Shown here: piece by piece, positions 8,735 through 48,628 of the stretch | Numbering within the stretch: the stretch's first letter is position 1 | How the letters are laid out: the number at the start of each line of letters is the position of its first letter | Source of the DNA: Candidatus Nomurabacteria bacterium RIFCSPLOWO2_01_FULL_39_18 | GTDB taxonomy: Bacteria; Patescibacteriota; Minisyncoccia; Phycocordibacterales; UBA9973 | Direction of reading: 5' to 3' | Assembly: GCA_001787005.1 (NCBI GenBank) | Contig: MFUV01000005.1 | Span: 2,764 to 66,763, forward strand | Length of the DNA stretch: 64,000 nt | Position numbers and translations under genes: made by a program | Notes under the pieces: model-generated | Told to the model about the DNA's origin: nothing | What the model saw: the letters and a program-made list of their open reading frames with translations, nothing else | Database searches by the model: none

Positions 8735-8811
8735 ACCCGGCAGTAGAGCTTGGCAATACTTATAAAGTAAATTTTTATTTTAAAAAAACTTTGCCAAGTC
8801 TCACTACCGGG
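8735..8811. repeat. REP-like hairpin element (ACCCGGtAGTAGAGCTTgG...CAAGTCTCACTACCGGGT), copy 1
   Basis: Imperfect long stem with conserved termini shared with copies at 12815-12854 and 37053-37122. Termini resemble the inverted repeats that flank the IS200/RAYT-like gene at 45576/46294. Confidence 0.5.
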
Positions 8812-10845
8812 TGCTATATTTCAGATGTGACAACAGAAGCTCAACATCTAGGAGGATTAAATAACGAACAAAAAGAAGCGGCGCTTCATATGAAGGGTCC
8901 TATGCTCATTATCGCGGGCGCGGGCGCGGGAAAGACTAAAACAATAACACACCGAATTGTGAATTTGATAAAGGAGGGTATCGTCCCAGATAAAATCCTG
9001 GCTGTAACATTCACCAACAAAGCGGCTAAAGAAATGCGAGAGAGGATTATCGCAGAAATTGAGAAAAATGCGGGAGAACAAGACTCCGTACCGTTTGTCA
9101 GCACTTTCCACTCATTGGGAGTTTTTATTATAAAAGAAAATGCCAGGGTTCTGGGACTAACAAAATATTTCACCATTTTGGACGAGTCAGATTCTACGAT
9201 ATTGATCAAAGAATCATTAAAAGAATTGGGGATAGATCCAAAACAGCATGACCCGAAAAAAATAAAAAACATTATCAGCCGAGAGAAGGGGAAGTTCGTG
9301 CATTTGCCTATGTTTACAGAAGAAAGAACGGATTATGTGGGCAAAATTGTGGCGCAAGTTTGGAATTTGTATGAAAAGAAAAAGGAAAAAGAAAATTCGC
9401 TGGACTTTGATGATCTGCTTTTGAAAGCAACGAAATTATTGCAAGAACGGGAAGAAATTAGGCAAATTTATCAAGAAAAATGGGAATATATTCACATCGA
9501 TGAGTATCAGGACACAAATGAAGTGCAATATTTAATGTCAAAATTGCTTTCTGAAAAGCATAAAAACATAGCTGTGGTAGGGGATGCCGATCAGAATATA
9601 TATTCTTGGCGCGGAGCAAATTTAAAAAATATTTTGAGTTTTGAAAAAGATTACCCTGACGCAAAGATAGTCTTGCTGGAGCAGAATTATAGATCAACAA
9701 AAAACATCTTGGAAGCCGCGAACGTAATAATTAAAAAAAATAAATACCGCCCAGATAAAAATTTATTTACGAAAAACGCCATGGGTGAAAAAATTGGTTT
9801 TTATGAAGCGCTTGATGAGACCGATGAAGCGGACTTTGTGGCAACAAAGATTTTGGAAATTTTGGACAGGGCTGGTGTTGCTTTTGAGAATGGTCTGGCT
9901 GGGGGAGGGACCCAGGAATCCGAGGACCTGAGCAAAAGCAACACCAGCCCTGTCCTCTCCAACATAGCAATTCTCTATCGCGCAAATTTTCAATCTAGGG
10001 CGCTGGAAGAAGCAATGCTAAGATACAACATTCCATATCAAGTTTTAGGTGTTAAATTTTTCGAAAGAAAAGAAATCAAAGATACTTTGGCATATCTGCG
10101 CGCGGCATTAAACAGAGACAGTCTTTCGGATATAAAAAGAATTATCAATTTCCCTGCGCGAGGCATAGGGAAAGTAACTTTGGTGAAAATTTTCGCGGAT
10201 GATATAGAGAACCTGCCAGTAAAAATGAAAATAAAAATTATTAATTTTTATGAAATATTGGAGGAGATAAAAGAAAAAATAAAAAGTGAAAAGGCAAGCC
10301 AGGTGATAAAATTCGTAGTGAAAAAGTCTGGCATTGAAAACGAATTATCGAGTGGCACCGAGGAAGACATGGAAAGACTTGAAAACATAAAAGAGCTTGT
10401 AACATTGGCCCTCAAATATGACAATCTGGCGCCAGGGCTAGGCATAGAAAAGCTTTTAGAAGATGCGTCGCTTGCTTCTGATCAGGATTCTTTGATTGAA
10501 AGAGGAGAGAAGAAAGAAGTAAAAAATTCAGTAAAATTAATGACAGTTCATGCATCAAAGGGGCTTGAATTCAAATATGTTTTCATCACTGGGCTAGAAG
10601 ATGGACTCTTCCCACACGAGAAACAAAATGAAGAAACTAGTATTGATAGCGAAGAGGAGCGCAGACTTTTCTATGTAGCGGTTACCCGGGCTCGGAATAA
10701 ATTGTTTTTGTCATTTGCAAATTTTCGCACTATCTTTGGTTCACGCTCCATTAATACTCCATCAGAATTTATTTCCGATATCCCAGCTGATTTATTAGAA
10801 AAAGAAGAAGAGAAAAATTTATTGAAAACAATTTATTTAGACTAG
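8791..10845 (+). CDS. pcrA: ATP-dependent DNA helicase PcrA/UvrD (SF1)
   Basis: Walker A IIAGAGAGKTKTITHRI, DEYQDTN, QNYRST, VKLMTVHASKGLEFKYVF, LFYVAVTRAR. The true start is probably the GTG at 8827 (MTTEAQHLGGLNNEQKEA..), just after the REP-like hairpin. The gene carries an 88-nt palindromic insert at 9866-9953. Confidence 0.9.
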   Translation: MPSLTTGCYISDVTTEAQHLGGLNNEQKEAALHMKGPMLIIAGAGAGKTKTITHRIVNLIKEGIVPDKILAVTFTNKAAKEMRERIIAEIEKNAGEQDSVPFVSTFHSLGVFIIKENARVLGLTKYFTILDESDSTILIKESLKELGIDPKQHDPKKIKNIISREKGKFVHLPMFTEERTDYVGKIVAQVWNLYEKKKEKENSLDFDDLLLKATKLLQEREEIRQIYQEKWEYIHIDEYQDTNEVQYLMSKLLSEKHKNIAVVGDADQNIYSWRGANLKNILSFEKDYPDAKIVLLEQNYRSTKNILEAANVIIKKNKYRPDKNLFTKNAMGEKIGFYEALDETDEADFVATKILEILDRAGVAFENGLAGGGTQESEDLSKSNTSPVLSNIAILYRANFQSRALEEAMLRYNIPYQVLGVKFFERKEIKDTLAYLRAALNRDSLSDIKRIINFPARGIGKVTLVKIFADDIENLPVKMKIKIINFYEILEEIKEKIKSEKASQVIKFVVKKSGIENELSSGTEEDMERLENIKELVTLALKYDNLAPGLGIEKLLEDASLASDQDSLIERGEKKEVKNSVKLMTVHASKGLEFKYVFITGLEDGLFPHEKQNEETSIDSEEERRLFYVAVTRARNKLFLSFANFRTIFGSRSINTPSEFISDIPADLLEKEEEKNLLKTIYLD
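9866..9953. repeat. Intragenic palindromic element inside pcrA, with 23-bp perfect terminal inverted repeats around a 37-nt GC-rich core
   Basis: ggacagggctggtgttgcttttg ... caaaagcaacaccagccctgtcc flank the core ggtctggctgggggagggacccaggaatccgaggacc. That core is the exact reverse complement of 11225-11261 in rsmA. It is translated in frame as ..AGVAFENGLAGGGTQESEDLSKSNTSPVLS.. Confidence 0.65.
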
Positions 10846-12814: not shown

Positions 12815-12854
12815 ACCCGGTAGTAGATCTTTGGTAAAAGTCTCACTACCGGGT
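12815..12854. repeat. REP-like hairpin element, copy 2 (acccggtagtagatctttggtaaaagtctcactaccgggt)
   Basis: Same termini as copies 1 and 3. It directly abuts a TATAAT and the start of the 12869 gene. Confidence 0.5.
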
Positions 12855-12868
12855 ATAATATAAGGAAA

Positions 12869-15490: not shown

Positions 15491-15556
15491 GAAAGTTTTA
15501 AAGTGAAAAGTTATAAAGTTTGTAAAGTAAATGAACATAAAGTAGTGAAAAAAATT

Positions 15557-15949
15557 ATGACTAAAAAAGAAATAAAAAATGCTGTAAAATATTGGAAGGA
15601 AACATCTAAAAGAGATTATGGCACCATGCTTGGGCTTTTTAAGATTAAACGCTACCCAGAAAGCCTGTTCTTTGGGCATATTGTTTTGGAAAAAACTCTT
15701 AAAGGTCTAGTTGTTCAAGAAACAGGGGAACAAGCGCCTTATATACATGATTTGCTTCGATTGGCAAAATTAGCAGAAATCAATTTAAATAAAGAGGAGT
15801 TTAACTTATTAAAAATTGTTAGTACTTTCAACATTCGAGCTAGATACCCTGAGCAAAAGTTGAAACTATATAAAATATGCACAGAAAAATATACAAAAGA
15901 TAAATTGGATAAAATTATCACATTATATAAATTATTATGTCAAAATTAG
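15557..15949 (+). CDS. HEPN-like (nucleotidyltransferase substrate-binding-like) protein, partner of the downstream MNT
   Basis: The track ORF begins at 15503, but 15503-15556 matches a leader motif shared with the rsmA upstream region. An in-frame ATG at 15557 (MTKKEIKNAVKYWKE..) is the more likely start. The gene overlaps the next ORF by 13 nt. The canonical HEPN Rx4-6H motif is not obvious. Confidence 0.45.
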   Translation: MTKKEIKNAVKYWKETSKRDYGTMLGLFKIKRYPESLFFGHIVLEKTLKGLVVQETGEQAPYIHDLLRLAKLAEINLNKEEFNLLKIVSTFNIRARYPEQKLKLYKICTEKYTKDKLDKIITLYKLLCQN

Positions 15950-16251
15950 AAGCAAAGAAAATAATTAGAAACTATGTAAGAAAACTAAGATCTGAAAAAT
16001 ACCCTGTTTCGGCGGCTTATTTGTTCGGCTCCTATGCAAAAAATACCCAGCGCAAGTGGAGTGATATTGATGTGGCAATAATTTCTCCAAAATTTAAAAT
16101 TCGTTTTGGGAAAAGTTACATGAGACTTTGGGATTTTCGTGAAGAAGTGGACAGTCGCATTGAACCACATGGCTTCACAAAGACAGATTTTAAAAATTTG
16201 GCTGATCCTTTAGTTTATGAAATTAGAAAGACTGGGATAAGAGTGATTTAA
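15937..16251 (+). CDS. Minimal nucleotidyltransferase (MNT) domain protein
   Basis: LFGSYAKNTQRKWSDIDVAI carries the GS...DxD nucleotidyltransferase signature. 104 aa. Confidence 0.75.
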   Translation: MSKLEAKKIIRNYVRKLRSEKYPVSAAYLFGSYAKNTQRKWSDIDVAIISPKFKIRFGKSYMRLWDFREEVDSRIEPHGFTKTDFKNLADPLVYEIRKTGIRVI

Positions 16252-18710: not shown

Positions 18711-19697
18711 ATGGATAAAGAAGAATTACAACAGAAAATAGCATTGTACTACTCAAAGCTTCCACCAAAAGCGCAAGCGGTTTTTTCCAGTATGAAATGG
18801 CTTGAGACTATAAAGAGCATAAGTGAAAAGTACGGCTTAAATGACAAACAGAAAGAGATACTCGGCACGGAAACAACTTTGGTGCTTTTGGGCATAATCG
18901 ATATAATCAAGTATGAAGAAATATTGATAGAAGAACTAGCATTATCGAAAGAGTCTGTAGATAAGATGCTTTCAGAAATAAACGATCTAATTATAAATAA
19001 TATACGACCCGAACTCATTGATGCATTCAACGCAAATAAAAATTCTCTAGAAAAAGAAAACCCAGAAATTGAACCAGTCTTAGACACACGTTTTGGGAAA
19101 TTATCACCGGATTTGGAAAAGATAATTGACGAATCCAATTATCAAGACATTCTCTATGGTATTGGCAAAGAGAAAAATTTCAGCGTTACGAAGATGGGAG
19201 CGCTTGAAAGAGCAACCACTGATCTAATAATGGGTACTATTCATCCAGATGAATTCGAGAATGTGCTAGAGAATAATTTAGAATTACCGCTAGAAAAAGT
19301 CAGAGAACTAGTAAATATTATCAACGAAAGAATTTTCAAAAAAATACGGGAAGAATTGATAAAGAATGTTGAGAGAAAAAAGATATTCGCGAACAAAAAA
19401 GCTGAAGAAAAACAGGATACGCAAGTATTGGGCGCCCACGGCATCGAGATTGTCGAGAATCCCCCCCTCCTTATCAAGGAGGGGGCGGGGGGTGGTAATT
19501 CAGAAGAGAACCACCCCGCCTCTGGCACCCCTCCTCAACAAGGAGGGGAAGAAACGCATCCCATATTAGCGCAAAAGTTATCCGGCCCTTATCAGGCTCC
19601 AGTAGTCAAGACGGACCACTCCTTGCAAAATCTTCAGCCTTCTTCTGAACAACAAAATAAGCCTGTAATTGATCCTTACCGCGAAATTCCGGAGTAG
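18711..19697 (+). CDS. Hypothetical protein (T4SS cluster) carrying a GC-rich palindromic insert near its C-terminus
   Basis: 328-aa ORF. The region 19461-19560 is GC-rich and palindromic (ccccctcc-ttatcaa-ggaggggg ...) and is translated in frame as PPLLIKEGAGGGNSEENHPASGTPPQQGGEE. Confidence 0.55.
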   Translation: MDKEELQQKIALYYSKLPPKAQAVFSSMKWLETIKSISEKYGLNDKQKEILGTETTLVLLGIIDIIKYEEILIEELALSKESVDKMLSEINDLIINNIRPELIDAFNANKNSLEKENPEIEPVLDTRFGKLSPDLEKIIDESNYQDILYGIGKEKNFSVTKMGALERATTDLIMGTIHPDEFENVLENNLELPLEKVRELVNIINERIFKKIREELIKNVERKKIFANKKAEEKQDTQVLGAHGIEIVENPPLLIKEGAGGGNSEENHPASGTPPQQGGEETHPILAQKLSGPYQAPVVKTDHSLQNLQPSSEQQNKPVIDPYREIPE

Positions 19698-19826
19698 AAT
19701 CATGCATCCCGTTAGAGATTAATTAGTTAAAAGTAATAAAAAAGTAAAAATATTATGATAAGTTTAAATAAATTATTAATGGTTATTAAAAGAACGGAAG
19801 TCTAGAGACTTCCTATCTCTAACGGG

Positions 19827-20258
19827 ATGCAATTCAAAGTTCCACAATTTTTAGATATAGAAGACAAAATTTTTGGCCCCTTTACTTTTAAGGAATTTAT
19901 TTACTTAGCAGGTGGAGCCGGTCTTTGTTTTGTGCTTTATAAACTGCTGGGTTTCTTCCTAGGCATTATCCCAATGCTTGCGATAGCTGGGCTCTCCTTA
20001 GCGCTTACTTTCTATCGACCAAACAATAAACCTTTCAGCAACATGATCGAAGCAGGATTCAACTATTTTACACAAGATAAACTTTATATTTGGAAGAGAC
20101 GTAAAAATAAAATCGACAAAAACAAGCCAGAAACGAATGGAGTGGAAGAAAGAGAAAGAGAAATGTTGGAAAATGCGGTGAGGCTGGGTAGAAATAAATT
20201 ACGGGATTTGGCTTGGAGTTTGGATGTGCTTGATTTAAGTAAACATCAAGGAAATTAA
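19827..20258 (+). CDS. Small membrane protein, VirB3/PrgI-like
   Basis: 143 aa with a hydrophobic hairpin (LAGGAGLCFVLYKLLGFFLGIIPMLAIAGLSLALTFY). Sits just upstream of the VirB4 ORFs. Its ATG directly abuts the right arm of an inverted repeat (19814-19829). Confidence 0.45.
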   Translation: MQFKVPQFLDIEDKIFGPFTFKEFIYLAGGAGLCFVLYKLLGFFLGIIPMLAIAGLSLALTFYRPNNKPFSNMIEAGFNYFTQDKLYIWKRRKNKIDKNKPETNGVEEREREMLENAVRLGRNKLRDLAWSLDVLDLSKHQGN

Positions 20259-20392
20259 CAATTAAAAATATGGTCCCGTTAGAAGTCGCGGTCGCAGTTT
20301 AAAAAATATAAATATGTTAATCAAAAAAATGAAAATTAATAGTATAATAAAGCTAAATTGCGATGAATTGACCGCGACCTGCTTCTAACGGG

Positions 20393-21040
20393 ATGGCATT
20401 AAAAGCAAAAGCAACTCAAGAGTTCGTACCGATAAAAGAAGTCCGCGATGGAGTGATCGTGCTCAAAGACGGCGGACTGCGAGCTATCATACTTGCTAAT
20501 TCAGTTAATTTATCCCTGAAGTCTGATGACGAACAGAAAGCAACAATAATTCAATTCCAAAGTTTTTTGAATACCCTCGACTTCGCTATTCAGATATCAG
20601 TGCAGTCCAGAAGGTTGGATATCAGGCCCTATCTTTTGCTTCTAGAAGACAGGATGAAAGTTCAAACTGAATCTTTGCTTAAACTGCAGACAAGAGAATA
20701 TATTGAATTCATTAGAAACTTCACCGAATCAGTAAGTATAATGACCAAAAGTTTCTTCGTGATAATACCCTACACTCACACAGTTTTAAAATCAGACTCC
20801 GGAATTTTCGGCGGAATATCAAAAATATTCAACAGAAAAAACAAAGAAGAGGTGAAAATAGCGAAACAAGAAGACTTTGAGGAAAAGAGGTCCCAGCTAG
20901 AAGAGCGGGTGGGGGTGATTAAACAAGGGCTTAATCGCTGTGGCATAAAGTCTGCCGAGCTCGGCACGGAAGAAATCGTGGAAGTATTTTATAAAGTTTT
21001 TAACCCCGGAGAAGTAGAGGGGAAAATTAAGCTGGAATAA
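20393..21040 (+). CDS. VirB4/TrbE N-terminal domain (CagE_TrbE_VirB-like) encoded as a separate ORF
   Basis: VPIKEVRDGVIVLKDGGLRAIILANSVNLSLKSDDEQKATIIQFQSFLNTL.. resembles the N-terminal domain of VirB4. It ends 7 nt before the ATPase ORF, in a different frame. Confidence 0.55.
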   Translation: MALKAKATQEFVPIKEVRDGVIVLKDGGLRAIILANSVNLSLKSDDEQKATIIQFQSFLNTLDFAIQISVQSRRLDIRPYLLLLEDRMKVQTESLLKLQTREYIEFIRNFTESVSIMTKSFFVIIPYTHTVLKSDSGIFGGISKIFNRKNKEEVKIAKQEDFEEKRSQLEERVGVIKQGLNRCGIKSAELGTEEIVEVFYKVFNPGEVEGKIKLE

Positions 21041-21047
21041 AAATATT

Positions 21048-22901
21048 ATGGGAATTTTTGATAAATTATTAAATAGGAAAAAAGATAGCTCAGCTTTGAG
21101 TAATACAAATGCTTCACTCTTGGCTGTGCTTCCAGAAGAAATATATGAAGCGGCCAATCTGGAGCTTCAGGATATCATCGCGCCATCAGCGTTAAAGATT
21201 GAATCAAAGTCAATAAACTTGGGCGATAAAATCGCTCGTACTTTTTTCATAATATCTTACCCGAGGTTTTTGACCGACAATTGGTTTTCTCCAATAATCA
21301 ACCTAGATAAAGTTTTTGATATTTCAATTTTCATTCATCCGATAGACACATCATTGATGTTACGACAATTCCAGAAAAAGGTCGCTGAAGTGCAAAGCCA
21401 GATAAATGTGCGCGAGTCAAAAGGCATGGTGCGCGACCCAATGCTCGACACCGCCTATCAAGACCTAGAAGGGCTCCGTGATAATCTGATACAAGCGCAG
21501 GAAAAGATGTTTGATGTGGGTATCTACATTACAATTTACGCCGACAATGATCTGGAGCTTTTCAAAATTGAAAATGAGATAAAATCAATCCTCGAATCAA
21601 GATTGATCTATATCAAACCAGCGCTCTTCCAGCAAGAAGAAGGTTTCAAAAGCGTTATCCCGACAAATACTGATCTTTTAAATATTCATCAAAAATTAAA
21701 TTCGGAGCCACTCTCAAGTATTTTTCCTTTTATTTCTTTTGACCTGACTTCCGACAGAGGCATTCTCTACGGCATTAACAGGCACAACTCAAGTTTAGTC
21801 ATTTTTGATCGTTTTTCGCTGGAGAATTACAACTCAGTGACCTTCGCCAAATCCGGTTCAGGAAAATCTTATGCCACAAAGCTGGAAATTCTGAGATCCC
21901 TGATGTTTGACATTGAGGTTATGGTGATAGACCCAGAGCGAGAATACGAATTCCTAGCTGAAGCGGTTGGCGGAAGATATTTTAATATTTCTCTTTCTTC
22001 AGACCACCATATGAACCCTTTTGATCTACCCATGCCACGAGAAGATGAGACAGCCGAAGATGTTTTGCGCAGTAATATTATTAATTTAGTCGGACTTTTC
22101 CGATTAATGTTGGGCGGACTGACGCCAGAAGAAGATTCAATGGTTGATCGAGCTATTTCAGAAACTTACGCGATAAAAGATATCACCCCAGAAGCGGATT
22201 TCTCAAATATCGAGCCCCCGCTTCTTTCGGACTTCGAAATGGTTCTGGGCGGGATGGACGGCAGTGATTCGCTCGTGGCTCGCTTGGCAAAATACACCAA
22301 GGGTTCATGGGCAACATTTTTAAACAGACCTTCGAACGTGGACATTGATAAAAAATTTGTCGTATTTTCTATTCGTGATATGGAAGACGAACTGAAGCCT
22401 GTGGCAATGTATATCGTCATGCATTATATCTGGAACTCAATCCGTAAAAATTTAAAGAAGCGTCTGCTCGTGGTGGATGAAGCCTGGTGGATGATGAAGT
22501 CCGAAGATACCGCGTCATTTCTCTATTCCATCGCCAAACGGGGCAGAAAATATTATCTTGGGCTCGCAACCATTACTCAAGATGCGGCAGATTTCATGAA
22601 ATCTTCCTACGGCGTGCCAATCATTACCAACTCTTCTATCCAGCTTCTCTTGAAACAATCTCCCACTACGATGGATATTTTACAGCAAACATTCAACCTT
22701 ACTGATGAGGAAAAATATTTGCTTCTAGAGTCTGGGGTGGGAGAGGGAATATTTTTCGCGGGGCTGAAGCATGTCGCTATAAAAATTATTTCTTCTTATA
22801 CAGAAGATCAGATTATCACTTCTGATCCTTCACAAATATTATCAAATAGAAAAGCCAAAGAAGAGCATGAGGCCCTGGAGCTGGCGGGAGACAAATTATA
22901 A
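21048..22901 (+). CDS. VirB4-like type IV secretion ATPase (AAA-like domain)
   Basis: Walker A FAKSGSGKSY. Walker B/DE LLVVDEAWWMM. 617 aa. Combined with the preceding ORF it is about 830 aa, the size of a full VirB4. Confidence 0.85.
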   Translation: MGIFDKLLNRKKDSSALSNTNASLLAVLPEEIYEAANLELQDIIAPSALKIESKSINLGDKIARTFFIISYPRFLTDNWFSPIINLDKVFDISIFIHPIDTSLMLRQFQKKVAEVQSQINVRESKGMVRDPMLDTAYQDLEGLRDNLIQAQEKMFDVGIYITIYADNDLELFKIENEIKSILESRLIYIKPALFQQEEGFKSVIPTNTDLLNIHQKLNSEPLSSIFPFISFDLTSDRGILYGINRHNSSLVIFDRFSLENYNSVTFAKSGSGKSYATKLEILRSLMFDIEVMVIDPEREYEFLAEAVGGRYFNISLSSDHHMNPFDLPMPREDETAEDVLRSNIINLVGLFRLMLGGLTPEEDSMVDRAISETYAIKDITPEADFSNIEPPLLSDFEMVLGGMDGSDSLVARLAKYTKGSWATFLNRPSNVDIDKKFVVFSIRDMEDELKPVAMYIVMHYIWNSIRKNLKKRLLVVDEAWWMMKSEDTASFLYSIAKRGRKYYLGLATITQDAADFMKSSYGVPIITNSSIQLLLKQSPTTMDILQQTFNLTDEEKYLLLESGVGEGIFFAGLKHVAIKIISSYTEDQIITSDPSQILSNRKAKEEHEALELAGDKL

Positions 22902-22928
22902 AGCAAGGATAAATGGTATAATCGAATT

Positions 22929-23918
22929 ATGAAATTAAAATTTTTATTACTATCTTTGATCACTATGCTTGTAATATTTATGGTGATTTCTGCGTCGGGG
23001 GTAAATGCCGCCTCATCTAGTAGCATTTCGGTTGATATGATACCTTCTAGCCCGGCTCCAGGCGAGAATGTAAGCATTACTTTGAGCAGTTACGCCAATA
23101 ATCTAGATAGTGTTTTAATAACCTGGTCTCTTGATGGAAGAACCGTTTCATCTGGGATTGGCAAAAAATCATTTTCTCTGACGGCTCCAGGCGCTGGCTC
23201 TGAAGTTGTCGTTACAGCCATTATCTCCCTGCCAGAAGGTAGTGTGGAGAAAAGAATGATAATAAGATCAAGCCTAATGGTGCTACTCTGGCAGGCGAAT
23301 GATTCTTATGTCCCGCCTTTTTATAAAGGCAAGGCAATGCCCTCCGTAGGTAGTGAGATAAAAGTGGTAGCCATGCCAGAAATAAAAGTTGGTTCGGACG
23401 GGACGGTTAACCCCAAAAGCATGACCTATTCTTGGAAAGAAGATGACACCAACAACGTAGAGGGTTCGGGTTATGGCAAAAATTCTTTTGTTTTTATAAA
23501 TGATTATTTAGAGGATTCTAACAATATAGGAGTAACGGCATCGACCATAGACCAGACATATTCATCTGAAGCCAGCATAAATGTGGGAATAGTAGAACCG
23601 AAAATATTATTTTATAAATATGATAATAGCCTCGGGATATTATGGGAGAAAATACTCCCTGACTTCCACAGAATACAAGATACAGAGATAGTGGAAGCGA
23701 CGCCTTACTTTATTTCACCGAAAGATATCCGAAATCCAACATTGATATGGAGTTGGTTTATTAATGACACGCAAATAAATACTCCAATTTTTAGGAAAAA
23801 TGTAATGCCTCTCCGGGTAGAGAGTGGAACTTCCGGGATATCACGACTGCGACTTCGAATTGAGAATCAATACAAAATTTTCCAGACAACAGATGGGGAA
23901 ATAGATTTAGAATTTTGA
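22929..23918 (+). CDS. Secreted hypothetical protein (signal peptide)
   Basis: MKLKFLLLSLITMLVIFMVISASGVNA signal peptide, then a Ser/Thr/Val-rich region suggesting beta-rich structure. Confidence 0.55.
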   Translation: MKLKFLLLSLITMLVIFMVISASGVNAASSSSISVDMIPSSPAPGENVSITLSSYANNLDSVLITWSLDGRTVSSGIGKKSFSLTAPGAGSEVVVTAIISLPEGSVEKRMIIRSSLMVLLWQANDSYVPPFYKGKAMPSVGSEIKVVAMPEIKVGSDGTVNPKSMTYSWKEDDTNNVEGSGYGKNSFVFINDYLEDSNNIGVTASTIDQTYSSEASINVGIVEPKILFYKYDNSLGILWEKILPDFHRIQDTEIVEATPYFISPKDIRNPTLIWSWFINDTQINTPIFRKNVMPLRVESGTSGISRLRLRIENQYKIFQTTDGEIDLEF

Positions 23919-23996
23919 GTGAAATTTAATGAGTGAAATGAATATAAATTTCCTCATCCCGTACTAAATTTTAGATTAAATGATATTAAAATAAAA

Positions 23997-25049
23997 ATGA
24001 TTATAAAAGATGAAAATAAATTAAGATTGAGAACTACAAGTAAAATTTTAGTACTGGGATTTATTTTTATACTCATAGGATTTTTTAGTCCGAGTCTAGA
24101 TGTAAACGCTGTGGAACAATACGGAACTTGTAATTGGGTTGAAGCTGAACAGAAAAGGAAGGAAGAAAATTATCTACAAGCAAATTGTTTAGCAAAGGGC
24201 AATACCGCAACTTGGGTAGGTTACTACTATCCCTTGGCTCCATTGCCTGGCTTGGGGAACAGGGAAGATGGAGGAATTGACACCGCGCAAATAGACAGCA
24301 CCGGAAAAAGCATTGCCTTGGGTGCATACCTAAACACAATGATAAAAATAATCATCGGAATTGCCGCAATTTTGTCTGTGGTTATGATTGTGATAGGGGG
24401 GATAGAATACATGACCTCTGAATTAATATCTAGTAAGGAAGCGGGTAAAGAAACAATAAAGAACGCGCTCTTCGGACTTCTGGTAGCTCTTGGCGCTTAT
24501 GCGCTTTTGAATACAATAAATCCGGACTTGCTGAAATCCGACCTAGACGTCCCAGGTGTGACTGTCACAGTAGATCTTGAAGCTGATGTCCCACAGACTT
24601 ATGACCCAGCAACCAGAAAATATGCCAATGGAGCTCTCTTTAACGCGCCATGGAATGACACAGTTGGGGGAATTACCCCAGCATGTACAACAGAAACTGG
24701 TACAGGATGTTTGCCAAGATCAGTTACTGCAAAACAACCAGAATGTTCTACTATTGGTCAACAAAATTGCACTTCAACAAGAGGTCTAAATACTAGTAAT
24801 TTGAGAACAATACAATATGGTTGTGGATGTAACGTATTAATCACTGGTGGAACAGAATGGTGGCTACACGGCGGGCGAAGTGGAAGTACGACCCATCAGT
24901 CTGGAAGTACGACCGTCGACCTTAGAACAACACCTGAATTGACTAGATATCTAATGGGTGGGACAACAGCTCCGGTCGCAGGACGAAGATACCCAACACC
25001 AGTTGGATCGGCATTGTTTGAAGGAAATCATTGGCACATTGGTCCATAA
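23997..25049 (+). CDS. VirB2/TrbC-pilin-like domain (two adjacent hydrophobic helices) fused to a Cys-rich extracellular C-terminal domain
   Basis: Helices KIIIGIAAILSVVMIVIGGIEYM and ALFGLLVALGAYALLNTINP, separated by a short polar loop, as in T4SS pilins. The C-terminal 150 aa have 8 Cys. Confidence 0.45.
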   Translation: MIIKDENKLRLRTTSKILVLGFIFILIGFFSPSLDVNAVEQYGTCNWVEAEQKRKEENYLQANCLAKGNTATWVGYYYPLAPLPGLGNREDGGIDTAQIDSTGKSIALGAYLNTMIKIIIGIAAILSVVMIVIGGIEYMTSELISSKEAGKETIKNALFGLLVALGAYALLNTINPDLLKSDLDVPGVTVTVDLEADVPQTYDPATRKYANGALFNAPWNDTVGGITPACTTETGTGCLPRSVTAKQPECSTIGQQNCTSTRGLNTSNLRTIQYGCGCNVLITGGTEWWLHGGRSGSTTHQSGSTTVDLRTTPELTRYLMGGTTAPVAGRRYPTPVGSALFEGNHWHIGP

Positions 25050-25130
25050 AATAATTTTACTTGTCCCGTACTAAATTTTTGATTACGGGGTATAATGATA
25101 AAAATTAATAAATAAAATTTTAGTATCGGG

Positions 25131-26495
25131 ATGTCAAAAAGAAACTTCACACTTTTAATAATAATTTTAATTCTAGGAACAGTCGGGTTTTTTGTATTTC
25201 TATATTCTCGTGGAGAGACACCTAGAGGAGAGGGAGGCGAGGGCACTAATTTCATCGCAAGGTTTAATCCATTCAGCAACAAAAAACCAGCGCCGGAAGA
25301 CACAGGGCCCACAGAGGATACCTCTTCACCTATAGAAGATCCTGAAGAAAAAATGCTGGAAGTAGAACTAAAAAAAGTTTCAAGTATGGAAATCGCTGGG
25401 TTTGGAGTATTTACGAAAGAAAGATTGAAAGAGATGAACCCCTCTCCAGCCCTCCCCTTGTCAGGGGAGGAAGAGAATCCTGCCCCCCCTGCTAAGGGGG
25501 GTTCGGGGAGTCTGAAACCCACACCGCCACCGACTGAATTTGCAACAGCAGTAAGATATGTGGCGAGAGCTACTGGGAACATTTATCAGACTTTCGCAGA
25601 CAAAATAATTGAGCGAAAGTTTTCTGGAACATTAATACCTAAAGTATACGAAGCGCATTTCGGCAATCATGGGGGATCTGTGGTGATGCGATACTTAAAG
25701 GGGGATGAAAAGACCATAGAAACTTTTTTCAGTGTCCTCCCGAAAGAATATTTGGGCGGTGATGCAACGGAAAACAATGAGATAAAAGGATCATTCTTAC
25801 CTAATAACATAAAAGATATAAGCCTTTCATCTGATACTTCTAAAATATTCTACCTTTTTGAGAGTGAAAGTAATTTAGGAGAAAGCATCATAGGCACAAC
25901 CTTGAGCTTGTTGGACAATAAAAAGGTTCAGATATTTGATTCTCCTTTTACGGAATGGCTGTCATCCTGGCCAAATAATAAAATTATCACCCTTTCCACT
26001 AAGCCTTCTGCGAACACTCCAGGATACATGTACAGCATTGATGGAGTTGGTAAAAACTTAACTAAAATCTTGGGTGATATAAATGGATTAACTACGCTCA
26101 CAAGTCCGGACGGAAAGTTGGTTCTTTACAGTGATAATAATCTAACTTCATATATTTACCATACGGATACTAAAAGTTCGGATTTATTGGGGATAAAAAC
26201 TCTGCCAGAAAAATGTGTCTGGGGGGGCGGGAGTGATATTTTTTACTGCGCTGTACCGAAATTAATTGGCGCTAGCCAATATCCAGATACTTGGTACCAG
26301 GGAGAAGAGTCATTTTCTGACCAAATTTGGAAAATAGATGTTGAAACAGGAAATGCCACCATGATCGAAGACCCGATCATGGCTCTGGGGGGAGAGGATG
26401 TTGATGGCATTAAGCTTGCTTTAGACGAAGGAGAGAGTTATCTATTTTTTGTAAACAAAAAAGATTCTTTTTTGTGGGAACTAAAGCTGAAATAA
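25131..26495 (+). CDS. Membrane-anchored protein with TolB-like beta-propeller repeats; hypothetical
   Basis: N-terminal TM helix LLIIILILGTVGFFVFLY. A GC-rich in-frame insert at 25452-25510. Repeats such as SPDGKLVLYSDNN. Confidence 0.55.
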   Translation: MSKRNFTLLIIILILGTVGFFVFLYSRGETPRGEGGEGTNFIARFNPFSNKKPAPEDTGPTEDTSSPIEDPEEKMLEVELKKVSSMEIAGFGVFTKERLKEMNPSPALPLSGEEENPAPPAKGGSGSLKPTPPPTEFATAVRYVARATGNIYQTFADKIIERKFSGTLIPKVYEAHFGNHGGSVVMRYLKGDEKTIETFFSVLPKEYLGGDATENNEIKGSFLPNNIKDISLSSDTSKIFYLFESESNLGESIIGTTLSLLDNKKVQIFDSPFTEWLSSWPNNKIITLSTKPSANTPGYMYSIDGVGKNLTKILGDINGLTTLTSPDGKLVLYSDNNLTSYIYHTDTKSSDLLGIKTLPEKCVWGGGSDIFYCAVPKLIGASQYPDTWYQGEESFSDQIWKIDVETGNATMIEDPIMALGGEDVDGIKLALDEGESYLFFVNKKDSFLWELKLK

Positions 26496-26578: not shown

Positions 26579-27073
26579 TTAGATAGCGCCAATGTATTTG
26601 ATCACTACTCGGCGAGACGGTCCGAAACCAACTGATTCAGTTTTTAGATCCGTGGCATCGGACAAAAATTCATGTACCACCCGTCGTTCGAAAGCTGACA
26701 TCGGATCCACTTCTATGTTTGATTTGAAATAGCGCGCTCGCTCCGACATCATATGTGCCACGGCACGAACATTATCAACACGTTTCTTTTGGAAACCATT
26801 AATGTCAATTAGAATTTCTGGCCACATGTCGGACTTGTGGGAATCCCACAAGTCCGACATGTGGTCTCTCTTGGCTTCAATCATTCTGCGAGCAAGATGG
26901 TTTAAGGCATTGAGCGCTTCACCATCGCGAGAGATGAAAAGATGCGGTTCATTTACCTCAACTGAAAACCATGTATTAGTACCATTGTCTTCAGTAATGG
27001 TAATTTTGTTGAGCATCGTTCCAGTTTTCTCAATCAATTCTTTTATTAAATTTTGTATTGTTTCCTTGTCCAT
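26579..27073 (-). CDS. jag: Jag/KhpB RNA-binding protein (KH + R3H domains)
   Basis: R3H motif RRVVHEFLSD. Position immediately downstream of yidC in the conserved rnpA-yidC-jag arrangement. Confidence 0.85.
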   Translation of the reverse strand: MDKETIQNLIKELIEKTGTMLNKITITEDNGTNTWFSVEVNEPHLFISRDGEALNALNHLARRMIEAKRDHMSDLWDSHKSDMWPEILIDINGFQKKRVDNVRAVAHMMSERARYFKSNIEVDPMSAFERRVVHEFLSDATDLKTESVGFGPSRRVVIKYIGAI

Positions 27074-37052: not shown

Positions 37053-37122
37053 ACCCGGTAGTAGAGCTTTGCGATATGCGAAGCATGCATCGAAGATGCG
37101 TCGCAAAGTCTCACTACCGGGT
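37053..37122. repeat. REP-like hairpin element, copy 3
   Basis: acccggtagtagagctttgcga ... tcgcaaagtctcactaccgggt with an inner GCATGC-centred hairpin. Same termini as copies 1 and 2. Confidence 0.5.
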
Positions 37123-38313: not shown

Positions 38314-38893
38314 ATTTTTCAATATACTCCAACGAGTCTGGGGTAGAAGCGAGATGAAGTGATTTCAGATCCATCGCAACTCTGCCCAAAATTTCCACTT
38401 CTGCGCAGTTTTCCGCAAGGTGTCTGAATTTTTCAAAAAGCACCCTAAGGTTAGTTTTCTCTTCTTCAAAAACTTGCGTAAATTCTTCCACTGCTTCGTT
38501 TAAGGGTGCTTCGTCTTCATATAGTTGAGCGTAAAGCGCCATACCTCCTAATCTGATTTCGGGTTCTTTTGGCACAAGCTGAGGTCCTTGCTGTTTATTT
38601 TTTATAGCCATACGTCGCTTGTATTCTTTATATTCACTCTCTCTAAACATTTCACGGGGCGTCACTTTTTCTTTTGTTGCAAAATATTTTTTTGCTACAG
38701 ATTGAATATCTCCCAGCGAATCCAAGCATATAGACTTGACAATATCTAAGACAACCAGAATTTCCATTCTAGCTTCTGTTGTCTTCTCTTCTCTCCTTCT
38801 GTCTTCTTTACTGATACTTACAACCTTTTTCCCGCTAATTCCGTTTTCCATAAAATTAATTATAAGTTTACCCGTACACCTAGCATAAGTCAA
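38267..38893 (-). CDS. Hypothetical protein (start probably the internal MENGISGKK Met at about 38852)
   Basis: ORF on the minus strand. A CCCGTAC-type hairpin overlies the first 14 codons of the track ORF, so these are probably 5' leader. Confidence 0.45.
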   Translation of the reverse strand: MTYARCTGKLIINFMENGISGKKVVSISKEDRRREEKTTEARMEILVVLDIVKSICLDSLGDIQSVAKKYFATKEKVTPREMFRESEYKEYKRRMAIKNKQQGPQLVPKEPEIRLGGMALYAQLYEDEAPLNEAVEEFTQVFEEEKTNLRVLFEKFRHLAENCAEVEILGRVAMDLKSLHLASTPDSLEYIEKFKERLEEMFEQVPKG

Positions 38894-39002
38894 AGTTAAG
38901 TGTGCGGGTTTGATGCATTTAACGGCTTTTTCTGTTACCTTGACTTTTGTACTGATTAAACATATACTATAAAAGTATTATAAGTTAATATTATATAATC
39001 AT

Positions 39003-39507: not shown

Positions 39508-40581
39508 CTACAAAAGCTTACTTTGTTTTTCTTTCACCTTAACCCCCAGATGTTCGTACGCCTTCTTGGTAGCCACCCGGCCGCGAGCAGTGCGCTCGAG
39601 GAGTCCAAGCTGGATTAAATATGGCTCTATTACTTCTTCCACTGTCGCTTCTTCCTCAGACATCGCTGCTCCGATAGTTTTCAATCCCACCGGTCCGCCA
39701 CCGAATTTCTTAATTAATATTTCCAGAAATTTTCTATCAGAAGGATCTAAGCCGAGTTCATCAATCGCCAGCATGGCAAGGGCACTTTTCGTTGTTTCTT
39801 TACTTATGGTTTTTTTGCCTGCCCCGTAGGAAGCAAGATTCCCTTCGGGGTGAACTTGAGCAAAGTCTCGGACTCGTTTTAAGAAATAGTTAGCCGTGCG
39901 GGGAGTGAACCTGCTTCGTTTAGCTATCTCTTCCAGAGCGCCACTGTCTAATTTTGCCTTAAGTAATTTACTAGATCTTTCTATTATTTTTTCAATCTCT
40001 TTATTTGAGTAAAATTCCAGCCTGAAAACTCCACCAGAGAATCTTGATCGTAGCGGTGAAGAAATCAAAGCTACTCGGGTGGTAGCCGCTATCAAGGTGA
40101 AAGGGGGGAGATCTAATTGAATTGTTCTGGCAGATGGTCCCTTGCCGAGGATGATATCTAGAACTCCAGACTCCATGGCAGGGTAGAGTATTTCTTCAAC
40201 CATTTTATTGAGTCGATGGATTTCATCAATGAAAAGGATATCGCCCGGGGATAAATTTGTAAGAATGGAAGCCAAGTCACCCACTTTCACGATTGCTGGT
40301 CCGGAAGTGATTTTTATTTGTCGGTTGGTTTCCTTGGCAATCAGATGAGCCAAGGTGGTTTTACCTAGACCTGGGGGACCATAGAAAAGAATGTGTTCTG
40401 GTATATGTCCGCGCTCTTTGGCAGCTTGTAAAAGAATTTTGACGTTATCCTTTATGTGTTTTTGGCCTATATACTCATCAAAACGCGTAGGACGCAAGGT
40501 CTGGTCCAAAAAAGAATCTTCAGATTTACTTGCCCCGCCCTGGCTTCTGGCGCTTGTTTCTTTGGTTATTTTGCTTGACAT
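39508..40581 (-). CDS. ruvB: Holliday junction branch-migration helicase RuvB
   Basis: ILFYGPPGLGKTTLAHLIA and DILFIDEIHRL. Carries a 30-nt GC-rich palindromic insert at 39821-39850, translated as PEGNLASYGAGKK. Confidence 0.95.
   Translation of the reverse strand: MSSKITKETSARSQGGASKSEDSFLDQTLRPTRFDEYIGQKHIKDNVKILLQAAKERGHIPEHILFYGPPGLGKTTLAHLIAKETNRQIKITSGPAIVKVGDLASILTNLSPGDILFIDEIHRLNKMVEEILYPAMESGVLDIILGKGPSARTIQLDLPPFTLIAATTRVALISSPLRSRFSGGVFRLEFYSNKEIEKIIERSSKLLKAKLDSGALEEIAKRSRFTPRTANYFLKRVRDFAQVHPEGNLASYGAGKKTISKETTKSALAMLAIDELGLDPSDRKFLEILIKKFGGGPVGLKTIGAAMSEEEATVEEVIEPYLIQLGLLERTARGRVATKKAYEHLGVKVKEKQSKLL
39821..39850. repeat. CCCCGTAGGAAGC...TTCCcTTCGGGG palindromic element inside ruvB
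   Basis: Imperfect palindrome. Same family as 53858-53889 (uvrA), 56331-56360 (intergenic), and the degenerate copies at 2877-2908 and 35497-35527. Confidence 0.6.
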
Positions 40582-40866
40582 TGATTTAATAATATGTTAT
40601 ACTACTTGTATGGTACATTTATCAACAGGGTATCAACAAGGCTATCAACATTATAGCATTTGTCGCTCTTCCCATATAGTAAAATGTATTTAGGAAGTTA
40701 TTTGATGAAAGAAGGCATTAATCTCTAAGCAATCAGCCACCGGTTATACGAGTTTGCATAGGACGTTCTGGTACTTTTATTAGTTCTCTGGCGCTATCCT
40801 ATAATAATTTGTTACTCTTCTAGCACAGCTAGGAAAGGATTGTTTAGAGATTAATGCTTTTTCTTT

Positions 40867-40980
40867 GTGAGGAATAAAATATGAAAGTTTTAGAGCACGG
40901 ATATTTTTTTGCTAAAAAATTCCTCGTGCTCGCACCGTCGTGCTCCCAAGTCTCTAAAACTTTCATATTTTATTCCTCAC
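40867..40980. mobile_element. MITE-like element with 29-bp perfect terminal inverted repeats (GTGAGGAATAAAATATGAAAGTTTTAGAG)
   Basis: Left arm 40867-40895 and right arm 40952-40980 are exact reverse complements. A 56-nt GC-richer core has its own inverted repeats. The right arm encodes the last three codons (SEE) and the stop of pilB. Confidence 0.5.
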
Positions 40981-42691
40981 TTAGATCCACCACACTTCGC
41001 ACTTCTTCGAGTGAAGTAATTCCATTTAATACTTTTACCAAACCATCCTGGCGCATTGAAAGTATCCCTTGATTGCGCGCCACTCTCTTGATTTCATGTT
41101 CACTCGGATTTTCAGGCATTATTTTCTCAACCGCTTCATTGGTTATAATCGCCTCAAAAATTCCTATTCTTCCATTGTAACCAGTTTTATTACATTTCTC
41201 ACAGCCGACTGGAGCGAAAAATTTAACAGGCGCGTCTGGGTTTATATTATAGCTTGTGAGGCTTTTGCCCTCATCTTTGATGCTATCCATCACTAGTTTT
41301 ACAGTTTTCGATTCCTCTTCAGTCGGCGTATATTCTTTCCTACAAAATGTGCAAAGAATACGCACCAAGCGCTGAGCCATGGAAAGGGACAGCGCTGAGA
41401 CCAAAATTTTTGGGTTCACTCCAAGGTCAATAAGACGCGGGATGACACCGGCGGCGTTGTTGGTGTGAAGTGTTGAGAAAACCATGTGGCCGGTCAAAGA
41501 CGACTGCACTGCGATTTCCGCTGTATCCCCGTCACGGATTTCTCCAACCATTATTACGTCTGGATCTTGCCGGAGTGCCGAGCGTAGTCCTTCAGGGAAA
41601 GTATAGCCTCTTTTCAGATTTATTTGGGTTTGAGTTATGCCAACTAAATGATACTCCACCGGATCTTCAATGGTGATTATATTTATTTCCGGTGAATAAA
41701 TTTTTCGCAAAAATGCGTAGAGAGTCGTAGTTTTACCAGAGCCCGTTGGACCCGTGACCAGAATCAAGCCGTTTGGTTTTTTGATTTGATCTTGGACGAT
41801 TTTAAAAAGGTATGGTTCAATTCCTAATTTTTCAAATTCCACCTGGATGGATTTCGGATCCAATATACGCATAACAATTGCTTCACCGTATGCACCGGGG
41901 ATTAAGGAAACACGGATATTTATTTCCTCATCTTTTTCCATAATATTGAAGCGCCCATCTTGGGCTACTTTTGAAGTTAACTTCATTCCCGAGAGGAGTT
42001 TAATGCGAGAATTAAGTAAGCGATACACATCAGATCCAAAAAAGTTTATATCCTGAAGCACCCCATCAAGCCGCAACCGCAGTCTGCTCCTGTCTTTCTC
42101 TGGTTCTATGTGCACGTCAGAAGCGCGAATCGCTATTGCTCCAGCTAAAATTATTTCGAGCAGACGAGAAATTCTATGAGTTTTATTCGCTTCCAAAGTT
42201 TCTACTACTAATTTTTCAATATCTTGGATGTGATGTATGTTCTTCGCCGTATTTGTTAAAATTTCTCCGGAAATATCTAAACCCCCGATTCTAGAACTTT
42301 CAGCCATTGAAAGCTCCTTATATCTTTCCCAGACCTTGTTTAGACTTGCGCTAGATGTCATATAGAAAGTCGGATTCAGATTTTTTCTTTCCATATCTTC
42401 TTTTAGTTTTTTAAAAAGATCCTCTGAAGGCGCGCGGACAGCTATATAGACGTTATCTCCGAACAGTTTAAAAGGTGCGACTTTCATCGCGATGGCGTCA
42501 GCCTCCGGAATCGCTCTCAAGGCTTCATTATCCACACCAATACGATGGAGATCAATATAGGGGAGACCGTATTTTGATTCGGCCAAAGTTGCTACTAGTT
42601 GCTCTTCCTCTTGTTTATGCAATTCTTCTAGTTGCCTATTTTGTTTTTCCTCATTAAAATCCTTTGCCACACATAAAGTATACCCCCACAC
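40970..42691 (-). CDS. pilB: Type IV pilus / type II secretion assembly ATPase (PilB/GspE family)
   Basis: N-terminal GspE-N domain. Walker A LVTGPTGSGKTTTLYA. Asp box. C-terminal tetra-Cys CTFCRKEY...CEKCNKTGYNGRIGIFE. The true start is probably the internal GTG (..AKDFNEE), because the track start lies inside the 23-bp palindrome. Confidence 0.85.
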   Translation of the reverse strand: MWGYTLCVAKDFNEEKQNRQLEELHKQEEEQLVATLAESKYGLPYIDLHRIGVDNEALRAIPEADAIAMKVAPFKLFGDNVYIAVRAPSEDLFKKLKEDMERKNLNPTFYMTSSASLNKVWERYKELSMAESSRIGGLDISGEILTNTAKNIHHIQDIEKLVVETLEANKTHRISRLLEIILAGAIAIRASDVHIEPEKDRSRLRLRLDGVLQDINFFGSDVYRLLNSRIKLLSGMKLTSKVAQDGRFNIMEKDEEINIRVSLIPGAYGEAIVMRILDPKSIQVEFEKLGIEPYLFKIVQDQIKKPNGLILVTGPTGSGKTTTLYAFLRKIYSPEINIITIEDPVEYHLVGITQTQINLKRGYTFPEGLRSALRQDPDVIMVGEIRDGDTAEIAVQSSLTGHMVFSTLHTNNAAGVIPRLIDLGVNPKILVSALSLSMAQRLVRILCTFCRKEYTPTEEESKTVKLVMDSIKDEGKSLTSYNINPDAPVKFFAPVGCEKCNKTGYNGRIGIFEAIITNEAVEKIMPENPSEHEIKRVARNQGILSMRQDGLVKVLNGITSLEEVRSVVDLSEE

Positions 42692-45159: not shown

Positions 45160-45549
45160 ATGGAAAAAGAAAATAAAAAACATGGCGTGTTATTAACAGT
45201 GTGGGTAGTTCTGATAATAATCATTAATGTTATTATCAGCGCAGGTTGGTTGTGGGAATCAATACATCCATATACGCCAGAGTCTACATCACTTTGGCTA
45301 ATATATGTTTATGTAATATCAGGATTCGTCAATGTTGTGTTTATAGTATTTTTATTCAGGTGGAAAAAATGGGCATTTTTTGCTTATTTTGGGAGTGTGG
45401 TTGTTGTTTTTATCTTGAATGTGATTAGTGGAAGGATAGAACTCATTAGTCTTCCATTTAGTCTTCCGTACGCGCTAGTTGGACCAGCCGTTCTTTATTG
45501 GATACTTCATTCCAAGACATTTTATTCTAAGTGGGACTTACTTGAATAA
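45160..45549 (+). CDS. Small integral membrane protein, hypothetical
   Basis: 129 aa with four predicted TM helices. Confidence 0.45.
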   Translation: MEKENKKHGVLLTVWVVLIIIINVIISAGWLWESIHPYTPESTSLWLIYVYVISGFVNVVFIVFLFRWKKWAFFAYFGSVVVVFILNVISGRIELISLPFSLPYALVGPAVLYWILHSKTFYSKWDLLE

Positions 45550-45575
45550 TTTTGGATAGGTAAAGTAACCAATAA

Positions 45576-46835: not shown

Positions 46836-46911
46836 AATACTTGTCCCGTACTAAATTTTTGATTATGACACATGACCATTATTAATAAAAACTTAAAATT
46901 TTAGTACCGGG

Positions 46912-48239: not shown

Positions 48240-48248
48240 TCAGAACTG

Positions 48249-48321
48249 TGCGCCCGGTTGGGATCGAACCAACGACCTTATCCTTAAAAGGGATCTGCTC
48301 TACCGACTGAGCTACGGGCGC
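48249..48321 (-). tRNA. tRNA-Lys (anticodon UUU)
   Basis: Cloverleaf: acceptor GCGCCCG/CGGGCGC; D-arm GCTC-AGTCGGTA-GAGC; anticodon loop CTTTTAA; T-arm GTTGG-TTCGATC-CCAAC. No encoded CCA. Confidence 0.9.
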
Positions 48322-48578: not shown

Positions 48579-48585
48579 AAATTTT

Positions 48586-48628
48586 TCTGCTCTACCTCTG
48601 CCAGCTGGCGGATGAGCTACGGGCGCAT
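48586..48628 (-). repeat. Partial duplicate of the tRNA-Lys 5' end (nt 1-14 and 18-28), with a 17-nt palindromic insert in the D-loop position
   Basis: gatgagctacgggcgcat and tctgctctacc match the tRNA. They are interrupted by tctgccagctggcggat, which is related to the 18-bp palindrome at 1623-1640. The copy lies 7 nt upstream of the GIY-YIG ATG. Confidence 0.5.

Follow-up and report, generated by a model that had tools for sequence, protein, structure and literature searches.

Palindromic repeats flush with start codons in a Candidatus Nomurabacteria type IV secretion gene cluster are probably the ends of small insertion elements

MITEs (miniature inverted-repeat transposable elements) of the Neisseria Correia, ERIC, IRU and RUP types are approximately 100-150 bp in length, carry terminal inverted repeats that fold into a stem, lack an open reading frame (ORF), and occur in multiple copies at gene junctions, where they are co-transcribed. 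Transcripts of Correia elements are cut by RNase III at the stems formed by their terminal repeats (PMC10969869). The intervening sequences (IVSs) of ribosomal RNA (rRNA), known from Coxiella, Leptospira and Salmonella and from non-intron insertions in the candidate phyla radiation (CPR), likewise consist of a stem of terminal inverted repeats, which is either empty or surrounds a single small ORF. In Coxiella the IVS bears tandem heptamers and a terminal stem of 28 bp and is excised by RNase III (PMC4990558). Here we describe elements of similar anatomy in a 64,000-nucleotide stretch of Candidatus Nomurabacteria bacterium RIFCSPLOWO2_01_FULL_39_18 (contig MFUV01000005.1), hereafter the window, where pairs of inverted repeats end exactly at the start codons of genes, several of them in a type IV secretion system (T4SS) cluster. 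Comparison of sequences indicates that these pairs, with high probability, form the termini of short palindromic insertion elements without coding capacity, either MITE-like or resembling rRNA IVSs, and are not a host regulatory module.

Two classes of arm were distinguished in the window, CCCGTTAGA...TCTAACGGG (class 1, two copies) and CCCGTACTAAA (class 2, three copies), both of which end TCCCGT.../...CGGG(A); the elements that they bound measure 72-121 nt. The first-pass annotation of this DNA had described four pairs in which a right arm ending ...CGGG lies directly before an ATG. All four were seen again on reading the sequence and in an inverted-repeat scan, and their description as a repeated module was correct. 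For pair 1 the scan returned perfect 17-nt arms at 19703-19719 and 19815-19831 (+ strand), and the element itself, a class-1 copy laid out as T-CCCGTTAGAGAT ... ATCTCTAACGGG-A, occupies 19707-19827 (+). The start codon of a PrgI-like gene opens with A19827, the final nucleotide of this element. The left flank carries ATGCA at 19702-19706 (+), read as the old start codon plus a duplication, the right copy of which lies at 19827-19831. The arms of pair 2 (20275-20297 and 20369-20392, +) comprise CCCGTTAGAAG with a GC-rich extension and belong to an element at 20274-20393 (+), a class-1 palindrome of 'P2-type', typically ~116 nt in length, with the layout T-CCCGTTAGAAG-T-CGCGGTC ... GACCGCG-ACCTG-CTTCTAACGGG-A. 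The final base, A20393, opens the ATG of a TraC-like gene, and the old ATGG is kept at 20270-20273. Inside this element an ORF of 24 codons (MLIKKMKINSIIKLNCDELTATCF, then stop) runs from 20314 to 20388 (+), and its TAA falls within the right arm, at a distance of 4 nt from the host ATG.

Pairs 3 and 4 are class-2 elements. The former, at 25059-25130 (+; ACTTGT-CCCGTACTAAATTTTTGATTA ... AAAATTTTAGTATCGGG), is flush with an ATG at 25131 and the latter, at 46839-46911 (+), with the ATG of a holA-like gene at 46912. Their arms pair as CCCGTACTAAATTTT against AAAATTTTAGTAYCGGG with two bulges, and the 26-nt identity reported between their left arms was borne out. A left arm at 23955-23978 that had been considered solo proved to have a partner, AAAATTTTAGTACTGGGA, inside the pilin ORF, which gives a further class-2 element at 23951-24059 (+; left arm 23957-23972, right arm 24042-24059). 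A hairpin at 38867-38915, formerly regarded as related, was excluded from the family, being local, not flush with a start codon, and situated upstream of the leaderless-type promoter of a minus-strand gene.

Predicted RNA folds of pairs 1 to 4 gave z scores of -8.4, -6.7, -2.0 and -4.2, respectively, with energies of -40.4 kcal/mol for pair 1 and -42.1 kcal/mol for pair 2; the fold of the pilin-gene copy alone was non-significant (z -0.7). According to this modelling, and as the first-pass annotation had supposed, the stem of a read-through transcript would take in the A of the AUG as its last paired base. Over the window and related DNA (816 kb) 139 long-range inverted repeats scored ≥34, compared with 2 in sequence randomised by a first-order Markov procedure preserving dinucleotide frequencies. 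The short motif CCCGTWMNA by itself was weakly enriched in the window (10 occurrences against 4.6 expected, with 4 of 100 shuffles reaching 10); the signal therefore resides in pairing and position.

Evidence of insertion was provided by orthologous junctions in a comparison set of 80 related loci (labelled L followed by a number), in which VirB4 is 74-92% identical. In these relatives the same four junctions either measure 1-10 nt from stop to ATG or hold inserts of 70-670 nt bounded by inverted repeats. The pair 1 site, between g18711 and PrgI, is empty in L007, L019, L041 and L045, where it consists of the stop, 4 nt and ATGCAA ('aattATGCAA'), and is filled by a full GIY-YIG cassette in L018. 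Orthologous copies of pair 2 (PrgI to TraC) were found in L013 and L020, and approximately 25 relatives are empty at this site with spacers of 1-8 nt. For pair 3 (pilin to g25131) there is an orthologous copy in L018, and approximately 28 relatives are empty, for example 'ttttATGTCA'. At the pair 4 site (PEMT to holA) L204, L205 and L207 have the stop, 1-3 nt and ATGAT(T/C)TA; the window has the stop, aat, the 73-nt element and ATGATTTAT, with duplication absent. The pilin site (g22929 to pilin) reads stop, 1-10 nt and ATGAAAAA... in most relatives, the element there being carried by the window and by L007 (both pilin paralogs). Empty sites agree with the left flank of filled class-1 sites, and class-1 arms were found paired 16 times in 12 genomes of this set. 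The elements thus display the presence/absence polymorphism and multiple copies per genome (two of class 1 and three of class 2 in the window) by which MITEs are recognised, together with small size (below ~300 bp) without a transposase ORF and terminal inverted repeats.

The class-1 family at large was recovered by scanning GTDB with a 23-nt right-arm pattern, GAYCGYGAYCTRCYTCTAACGGG, in which the ATG is not included. The scan yielded at least 119 stretches from at least 90 CPR genomes, at least 21 of which have two or more pattern loci. The family counts given from here on refer to copies among the matches listed, namely 122 copies, of which 109 served for tests of flanks and loops and 105, having the left arm in place, were aligned. 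Their lineages include the Nomura-, Pacei-, Azam-, Zambryskii-, Levy-, Kaiser-, Sungii-, Terry-, Buchanan-, Lipton-, Niyogi-, Taylor-, Kerfeld- and Wildermuthbacteria and the Komeilibacteria, and element lengths are mostly 113-121 nt. An ATG directly follows the element in 113 of 122 copies (93%) and a GTG in 2, and the ORF opened by this ATG has a median length of 221 codons. Orientation relative to the gene is uniform in 113 of 122, and none of the nine exceptions has the flank of a flipped copy. The upstream ORF on the same strand usually ends 0-30 nt before the element, and some copies stand directly after a leaderless promoter of the form TATAAT-N7. The downstream genes are unrelated to one another and include housekeeping genes.

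The left flank of class-1 copies reads ATGNN-T-CCCG, where NN are the two bases that follow the downstream ATG. The 4-nt flank (TGNN) is the same on both sides in 62 of 109 copies, compared with 18.5 expected from shuffling and a maximum of 31 in 1000 shuffles, and an A precedes the left copy of the flank in 81 of 109. Alignment of the 105 complete copies resolved the stem into a 13-bp helix, a conserved one-sided internal loop of 4 nt and a 7-bp helix. Across this alignment 98.7% of cells are paired, and 93 cells, distributed over 7 pairs, have changed on both sides; none of 500 shuffles reached the observed pairing, and slid controls paired at 33-42%. At the outer end of the stem 105 copies have the pair T..A; in 3 it is replaced by C..G, and in the latter the start is GTG or GTC, which indicates that the A of the ATG belongs to the element. 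As read from these flanks, class 1 inserts at the start codon with a 4-nt target duplication (TGNN), and the original ATG is retained to the left of the element; the right arm abuts the ATG because the terminal A of the element and the duplicated TG rebuild the start codon. An excision or circle junction, if formed, would read ...CTAACGGGA joined to TCCCGTTAG....

The consensus of class 2 is ACCTGTCCCGTACTAAATTTTTGATTA ... AAAATTTTAGTACYGGG followed immediately by ATG, and copies precede unrelated genes in the window, L010, L018, L093 and L187. At two resolved sites the point of insertion is precisely the boundary of the spacer and the ATG. Translation of the pilin ORF would now begin in the loop, at the ATG at 23997, and continue across the right arm, with the consequence that the element encodes its first ~20 residues. 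In this respect it is comparable to the Rickettsia palindromic elements, which are tolerated in or at coding regions and sometimes supply peptide; those elements, however, insert in frame within ORFs, whereas the elements described here are situated at the ORF start.

A longer partner with the same ends exists, which encodes a GIY-YIG domain and not a known transposase. GIY-YIG cassettes with class-1 termini (CCCGTTAGAGAT ... ATCTCTAACGGG) and flush with an ATG were found in L018, L048, L066 and L108, and their ORF, an 84-aa GIY-YIG domain protein (PF01541), stops at the same TAA as the short copies. When aligned to the 276-nt cassettes of L018, L066 and L048, pair 1 lacks ~165 nt of the interior and is, on the strength of this alignment, a decayed, deleted copy of such a cassette, its ORF-less remnant. 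Each of the long inserts carries one small ORF, always co-directional with the operon, and four types were encountered: the four-helix-bundle 23S_rRNA_IVP (TIGR02436 / PF05635), the 84-aa GIY-YIG, GxxExxY / PD-(D/E)XK and NYN. The GIY-YIG protein would likely be the mobilising or maintenance factor, a part taken in sister cassettes by the GxxExxY nuclease or the four-helix-bundle IVS protein. ORFs for 23S_rRNA_IVP and GIY-YIG are common to the present cassettes and rRNA IVSs, from which the GxxExxY nuclease is known as well, and the same ORF families were reported from CPR rRNA non-intron insertions, which the authors suggest are probably IVSs cleaved by RNase III (PMC11270868).

A sister cassette of the GxxExxY / PDDEXK_3 type is present in the window at 60291-60785 (- strand; ORF 60374-60763) with inverted arrays of ATTCGYA heptamers. 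It is intact, lies between two minus-strand genes and ends 13 nt before the ATG of an fpg-like gene. Cassettes for the IVS protein were located in relatives at L012 1534-2020, L015 4492-4917, L022 361-810, L031 4456-4925, L032 899-1336, L034 2597-3040, L083 3844-4260 and L017 1296-1733. These are 417-487 nt in length, occupy the g18711-to-PrgI and PrgI-to-TraC junctions and each encode a four-helix-bundle (23S rRNA IVS) protein. Their arms are inverted arrays of tandem 7-8-nt units (TTAGGCN, AGCTNAT, AATTACG and AAAGTTCAT) with a conserved core and 1-2 variable positions, and the arm sequence differs among genomes and is common to several sites inside one genome. Tandem heptamers are found both at the end of the Coxiella IVS and in the arms of sister cassettes.

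A GIY-YIG ORF of 88 aa (48312-48578) was noted in the window at 48248-48640 (-), ending within the 5' end of a tRNA-Lys(UUU) gene (48248-48321). Before it lies a duplicate of the first ~29 nt of the tRNA-Lys (ATGCGCCCGTAGCTCA...GGTAGAGCAG) with a 16-nt palindromic insert at the D-loop position. The arrangement looks like a GIY-YIG element integrated into a tRNA gene with restoration of the tRNA. The acceptor-stem bases CCCG/CGGG of this tRNA-Lys resemble the termini of classes 1 and 2. Elsewhere, two adjacent long-range inverted repeats at 40707-40863 and 40867-40980, with arms of 28 and 29 nt and loops of 103 and 56 nt, respectively, sit between the minus-strand ORFs 39508-40581 and 40970-42691 and may represent additional ORF-less cassettes with arms of a different family.

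In class 1 a TAA is invariant 4 nt before the host ATG (TAACGGGATG). The open-frame test was run on loops only. Of 109 loops, 40 contain no stop in the frame that leads into the right-arm TAA, whereas the two remaining frames are free of stops in 12 and 7; an ORF of 20-40 codons beginning with ATG is present in 48 copies. In the 109 class-1 copies loop peptides end ..L(T/I)A(T/I)CF, a subgroup having the common ending ..KINN(I/L)K.QIRELIAICF, and in 14 copies the frame opened by the old ATG continues across the entire element (M-x-PVRSR...). Among 40 gene starts in the window a motif resembling the Shine-Dalgarno sequence was found at 1 (2.9 expected), and a -10-like hexamer lies 5-10 nt before the ATG at 15 (2.1 expected), from which leaderless mRNAs are probably common. 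On these grounds a mode of persistence may be proposed in which the start codon is regenerated on insertion, the elements would be co-transcribed with the operon, and the stem would fold the insert out of the message, rejoining the upstream stop and the downstream AUG. RNase III would probably cut the stem, by analogy with the IVS and Correia stems, and in many copies the short internal ORF ending 4 nt before the AUG could allow termination-reinitiation. The elements would in this way persist by doing little harm.

Several observations weigh against an insertion element as the explanation. The elements are not accompanied by any recognised transposase, and GIY-YIG nucleases are not known to transpose DNA. 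No target duplication is visible in class 2 at the two resolved sites. Interiors are no more alike within genomes (identity 0.63) than between genomes (0.60) and so give no sign of recent bursts. The arms have been kept while the interiors are scrambled, a pattern that argues for selection on the arms beyond simple selfish mobility, although arm conservation is partly ascertainment, the copies having been found via their arms. Mismatches of the G:T and A:C types are near-even in number, 18 and 14 in the class-1 stem and 49 and 47 in 69 long-range inverted repeats, and favour neither an RNA-level nor a DNA-level role of the stem.

The insertion elements described here also depart in part from both of the systems that they most resemble. 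Class 1 shares with MITEs a target-site duplication; unlike MITEs, the family abuts the start codon in 93% of copies, is fixed in orientation and contributes as its last base the A of the rebuilt ATG. Its ORF-bearing partner is a GIY-YIG nuclease rather than a DDE transposase, its interiors and not its arms are scrambled, and it spans many candidate phyla. Short ORF-less forms are common among rRNA IVSs too; unlike these, however, the present elements lie between protein-coding genes, and class 1 has a target duplication. No rRNA was found in the window or in nine loci scanned, including those without a following ATG, and one tRNA was found in the nine loci. In Rfam only two tRNAs matched at the gathering score, and nothing relevant was returned at E values up to 5 in 19600-25300. 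Searches of the literature turned up no description of CPR MITEs or start-codon-flush palindromic elements, nor of IVS-protein or GIY-YIG cassettes between protein genes.

The first-pass annotation had favoured a host regulatory module in which a promoter in the loop yields a translatable transcript lacking the left arm, the stem in a read-through transcript hiding the AUG. Genes e, soc and I-TevI of phage T4 are reportedly controlled in translation by a hairpin that contains a late promoter, and the geometry is that proposed, with the 5' arm upstream of the promoter and the 3' arm over the initiation region. The predicted stems are indeed stable and include the A of the AUG, hexamers resembling TATAAT occur in window copies (TAGTATAAT at 20341-20349 and GGTATAAT at 25089-25096), and the orthologous pair 2 element has been kept across lineages with 88-92% VirB4 identity. 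The promoter-bearing spacer nevertheless obtained no statistical backing: of the 109 loops, 90 contain a -10-like hexamer on the + strand and 93 one on the - strand (178 and 209 hits, respectively), without bias, and perfect TATAAT numbered 25 and 19, so that gating by an internal promoter is unsupported. In the ORF-bearing relatives the interval from the cassette ORF to the right arm is too short to hold a promoter, which implies that the downstream gene is expressed from transcripts containing both arms. Unlike the T4 hairpin, the structure arises by insertion, and there is no evidence here of a loop promoter directed at the gene. Junction occupancy varies, most close relatives having the same operon with junctions of 1-8 nt and no module, and the same element precedes unrelated genes in at least 90 genomes; we therefore regard such gating as quite improbable. 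A domesticated processing or coupling device is somewhat unlikely, yet deserves more consideration, and it overlaps with the insertion reading without excluding it. Here a cut by RNase III at the stem base would produce a leaderless-type cistron with its 5' end at or near the AUG, or else the fold and the internal ORF would restore stop-start coupling. The organism lacks Shine-Dalgarno motifs and is prone to leaderless transcription, in 93% of copies the base of the stem falls at the AUG, arms and pairing are conserved around scrambled interiors, the frame matching the TAA 4 nt before the AUG is enriched for openness, and RNase III cuts the stems of IVSs and Correia elements (PMC4990558; PMC10969869). 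Such a device is opposed by the lack of any excess of G:U over A:C, by the absence of an ATG-started internal ORF from approximately half of the copies, and by element-less relatives that express the same genes.

Movement of the elements as REPINs, that is, doublets of repetitive extragenic palindromic (REP) sequences mobilised as single-stranded hairpins by a Y1 (HUH) transposase of the RAYT type, is likewise quite improbable. The window does contain a candidate enzyme, a Y1_Tnp ORF of 226 aa at 45618-46298 with an IS200-like domain (PF01797), flanked by a 26-nt inverted repeat and lying within 45569-46318 (+). The polA to PEMT-like junction measures ~25 nt in L204, L205 and L207; this ORF and ORF 45160-45549 are accordingly extra in the window. 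Size, a long hairpin, conserved arms around a more variable loop and compensatory changes recall REPINs (PMC3116915), and in both systems numerous hairpin-forming doublets coexist with a few protein-coding copies that have the same repeats. The window Y1 gene, however, is bounded by different repeats (CCAATAAGAGCTTTAGACTCTCACTG) and not by CCCGT-type arms (CCCGTTAGA or CCCGTACTA), which bound GIY-YIG ORFs instead, and insertion is at gene starts, not gene ends. Class 1 moreover shows a 4-nt target duplication, and HUH transposition is not known to make one. A REP-like short pattern, TAGAGCTTTR, showed no significant enrichment in the window. Still less credible, to the point of being almost negligible, are invertons, in which the inverted repeats would be sites for a recombinase that flips a promoter and phase-varies the T4SS or pilin. 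The repeats do bound short A/T-rich segments beside genes for surface structures, and the arm sequence recurs at several loci. The interior is nonetheless asymmetric, with a one-sided internal loop, and 113 of 122 copies face the same way relative to the gene. The strain is represented by four assemblies, which are collinear with identical or near-identical arrangement, the loops, at 32-40 nt, would be very small for an invertible segment, and the targets include housekeeping genes. An analogy with integron attC sites (GTTRRRY / RYYYAAC) was considered from the sequence and rejected, the motif order being reversed, the second half-site absent and a target duplication present.

The window adjoins dnaA, dnaN, rnpA and yidC and includes a CPR-type T4SS cluster with PrgI, TraC-like, VirB4-like and T4SS pilin genes; the nearest named homologs belong to Candidatus Nomurabacteria / Paceibacterota. 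Operon-internal junctions are A/T-rich and 1-10 nt in length. A HEPN / nucleotidyltransferase (MNT) gene pair lies at 15503-16251 (+) inside the T4SS-proximal operon. A hairpin motif, ACCCGGTAGTAGAGCTTTG...CTCACTACCGGGT, was observed at 12815-12868, 37053-37122 and ~8735-8760, beside TATAAT boxes upstream of several genes; tested through the short pattern TAGAGCTTTR, it did not reach significance. A perfect palindrome of ~20 nt at 26822-26864 has comparably perfect counterparts of different sequence in L007 (11756-11798), L018 (11676-11716) and L051 (12104-12145), and these may represent a terminator or binding site common to the four genomes. The long ORF 8791-10845 contains a perfect 23-nt inverted repeat (9864-9886 / 9933-9955) with a loop of 46 nt.

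With the insertion reading, a speculative regulatory interpretation is replaced by a concrete, widespread and sequence-defined family, present in at least 90 CPR genomes of many candidate phyla. The caveat entered in the first-pass annotation, that the arms might be the ends of an insertion element, is the answer reached here. The element marks true start codons with 93% precision in the copies counted, which makes it useful for start annotation where Shine-Dalgarno signals are lacking. Insertions at protein-gene junctions are tied to rRNA intervening sequences, which are themselves unexplained, by common anatomy and by ORFs present in both (IVS protein and GIY-YIG), and they offer a tractable system for studying the movement of IVSs and the function of the small proteins encoded in them. 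Only tentatively, and as a whole that may well prove wrong in one part or another, it may be suggested that Patescibacteria carry mobile cassettes of a kind absent from the literature searched, bounded by inverted repeats and comprising small structure-specific nucleases (GIY-YIG, PD-(D/E)XK GxxExxY or NYN) or the four-helix-bundle IVS protein together with ORF-less miniatures. These would home to gene starts, rebuild the start codon and, by folding out of the mRNA, become invisible to translation; a cut by RNase III would then produce a leaderless-type cistron, or termination-reinitiation would proceed via the mini-ORF, and the cassettes would be the long-sought source of rRNA intervening sequences. 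The family furnishes testable predictions on leaderless or coupled translation in ultra-small bacteria.

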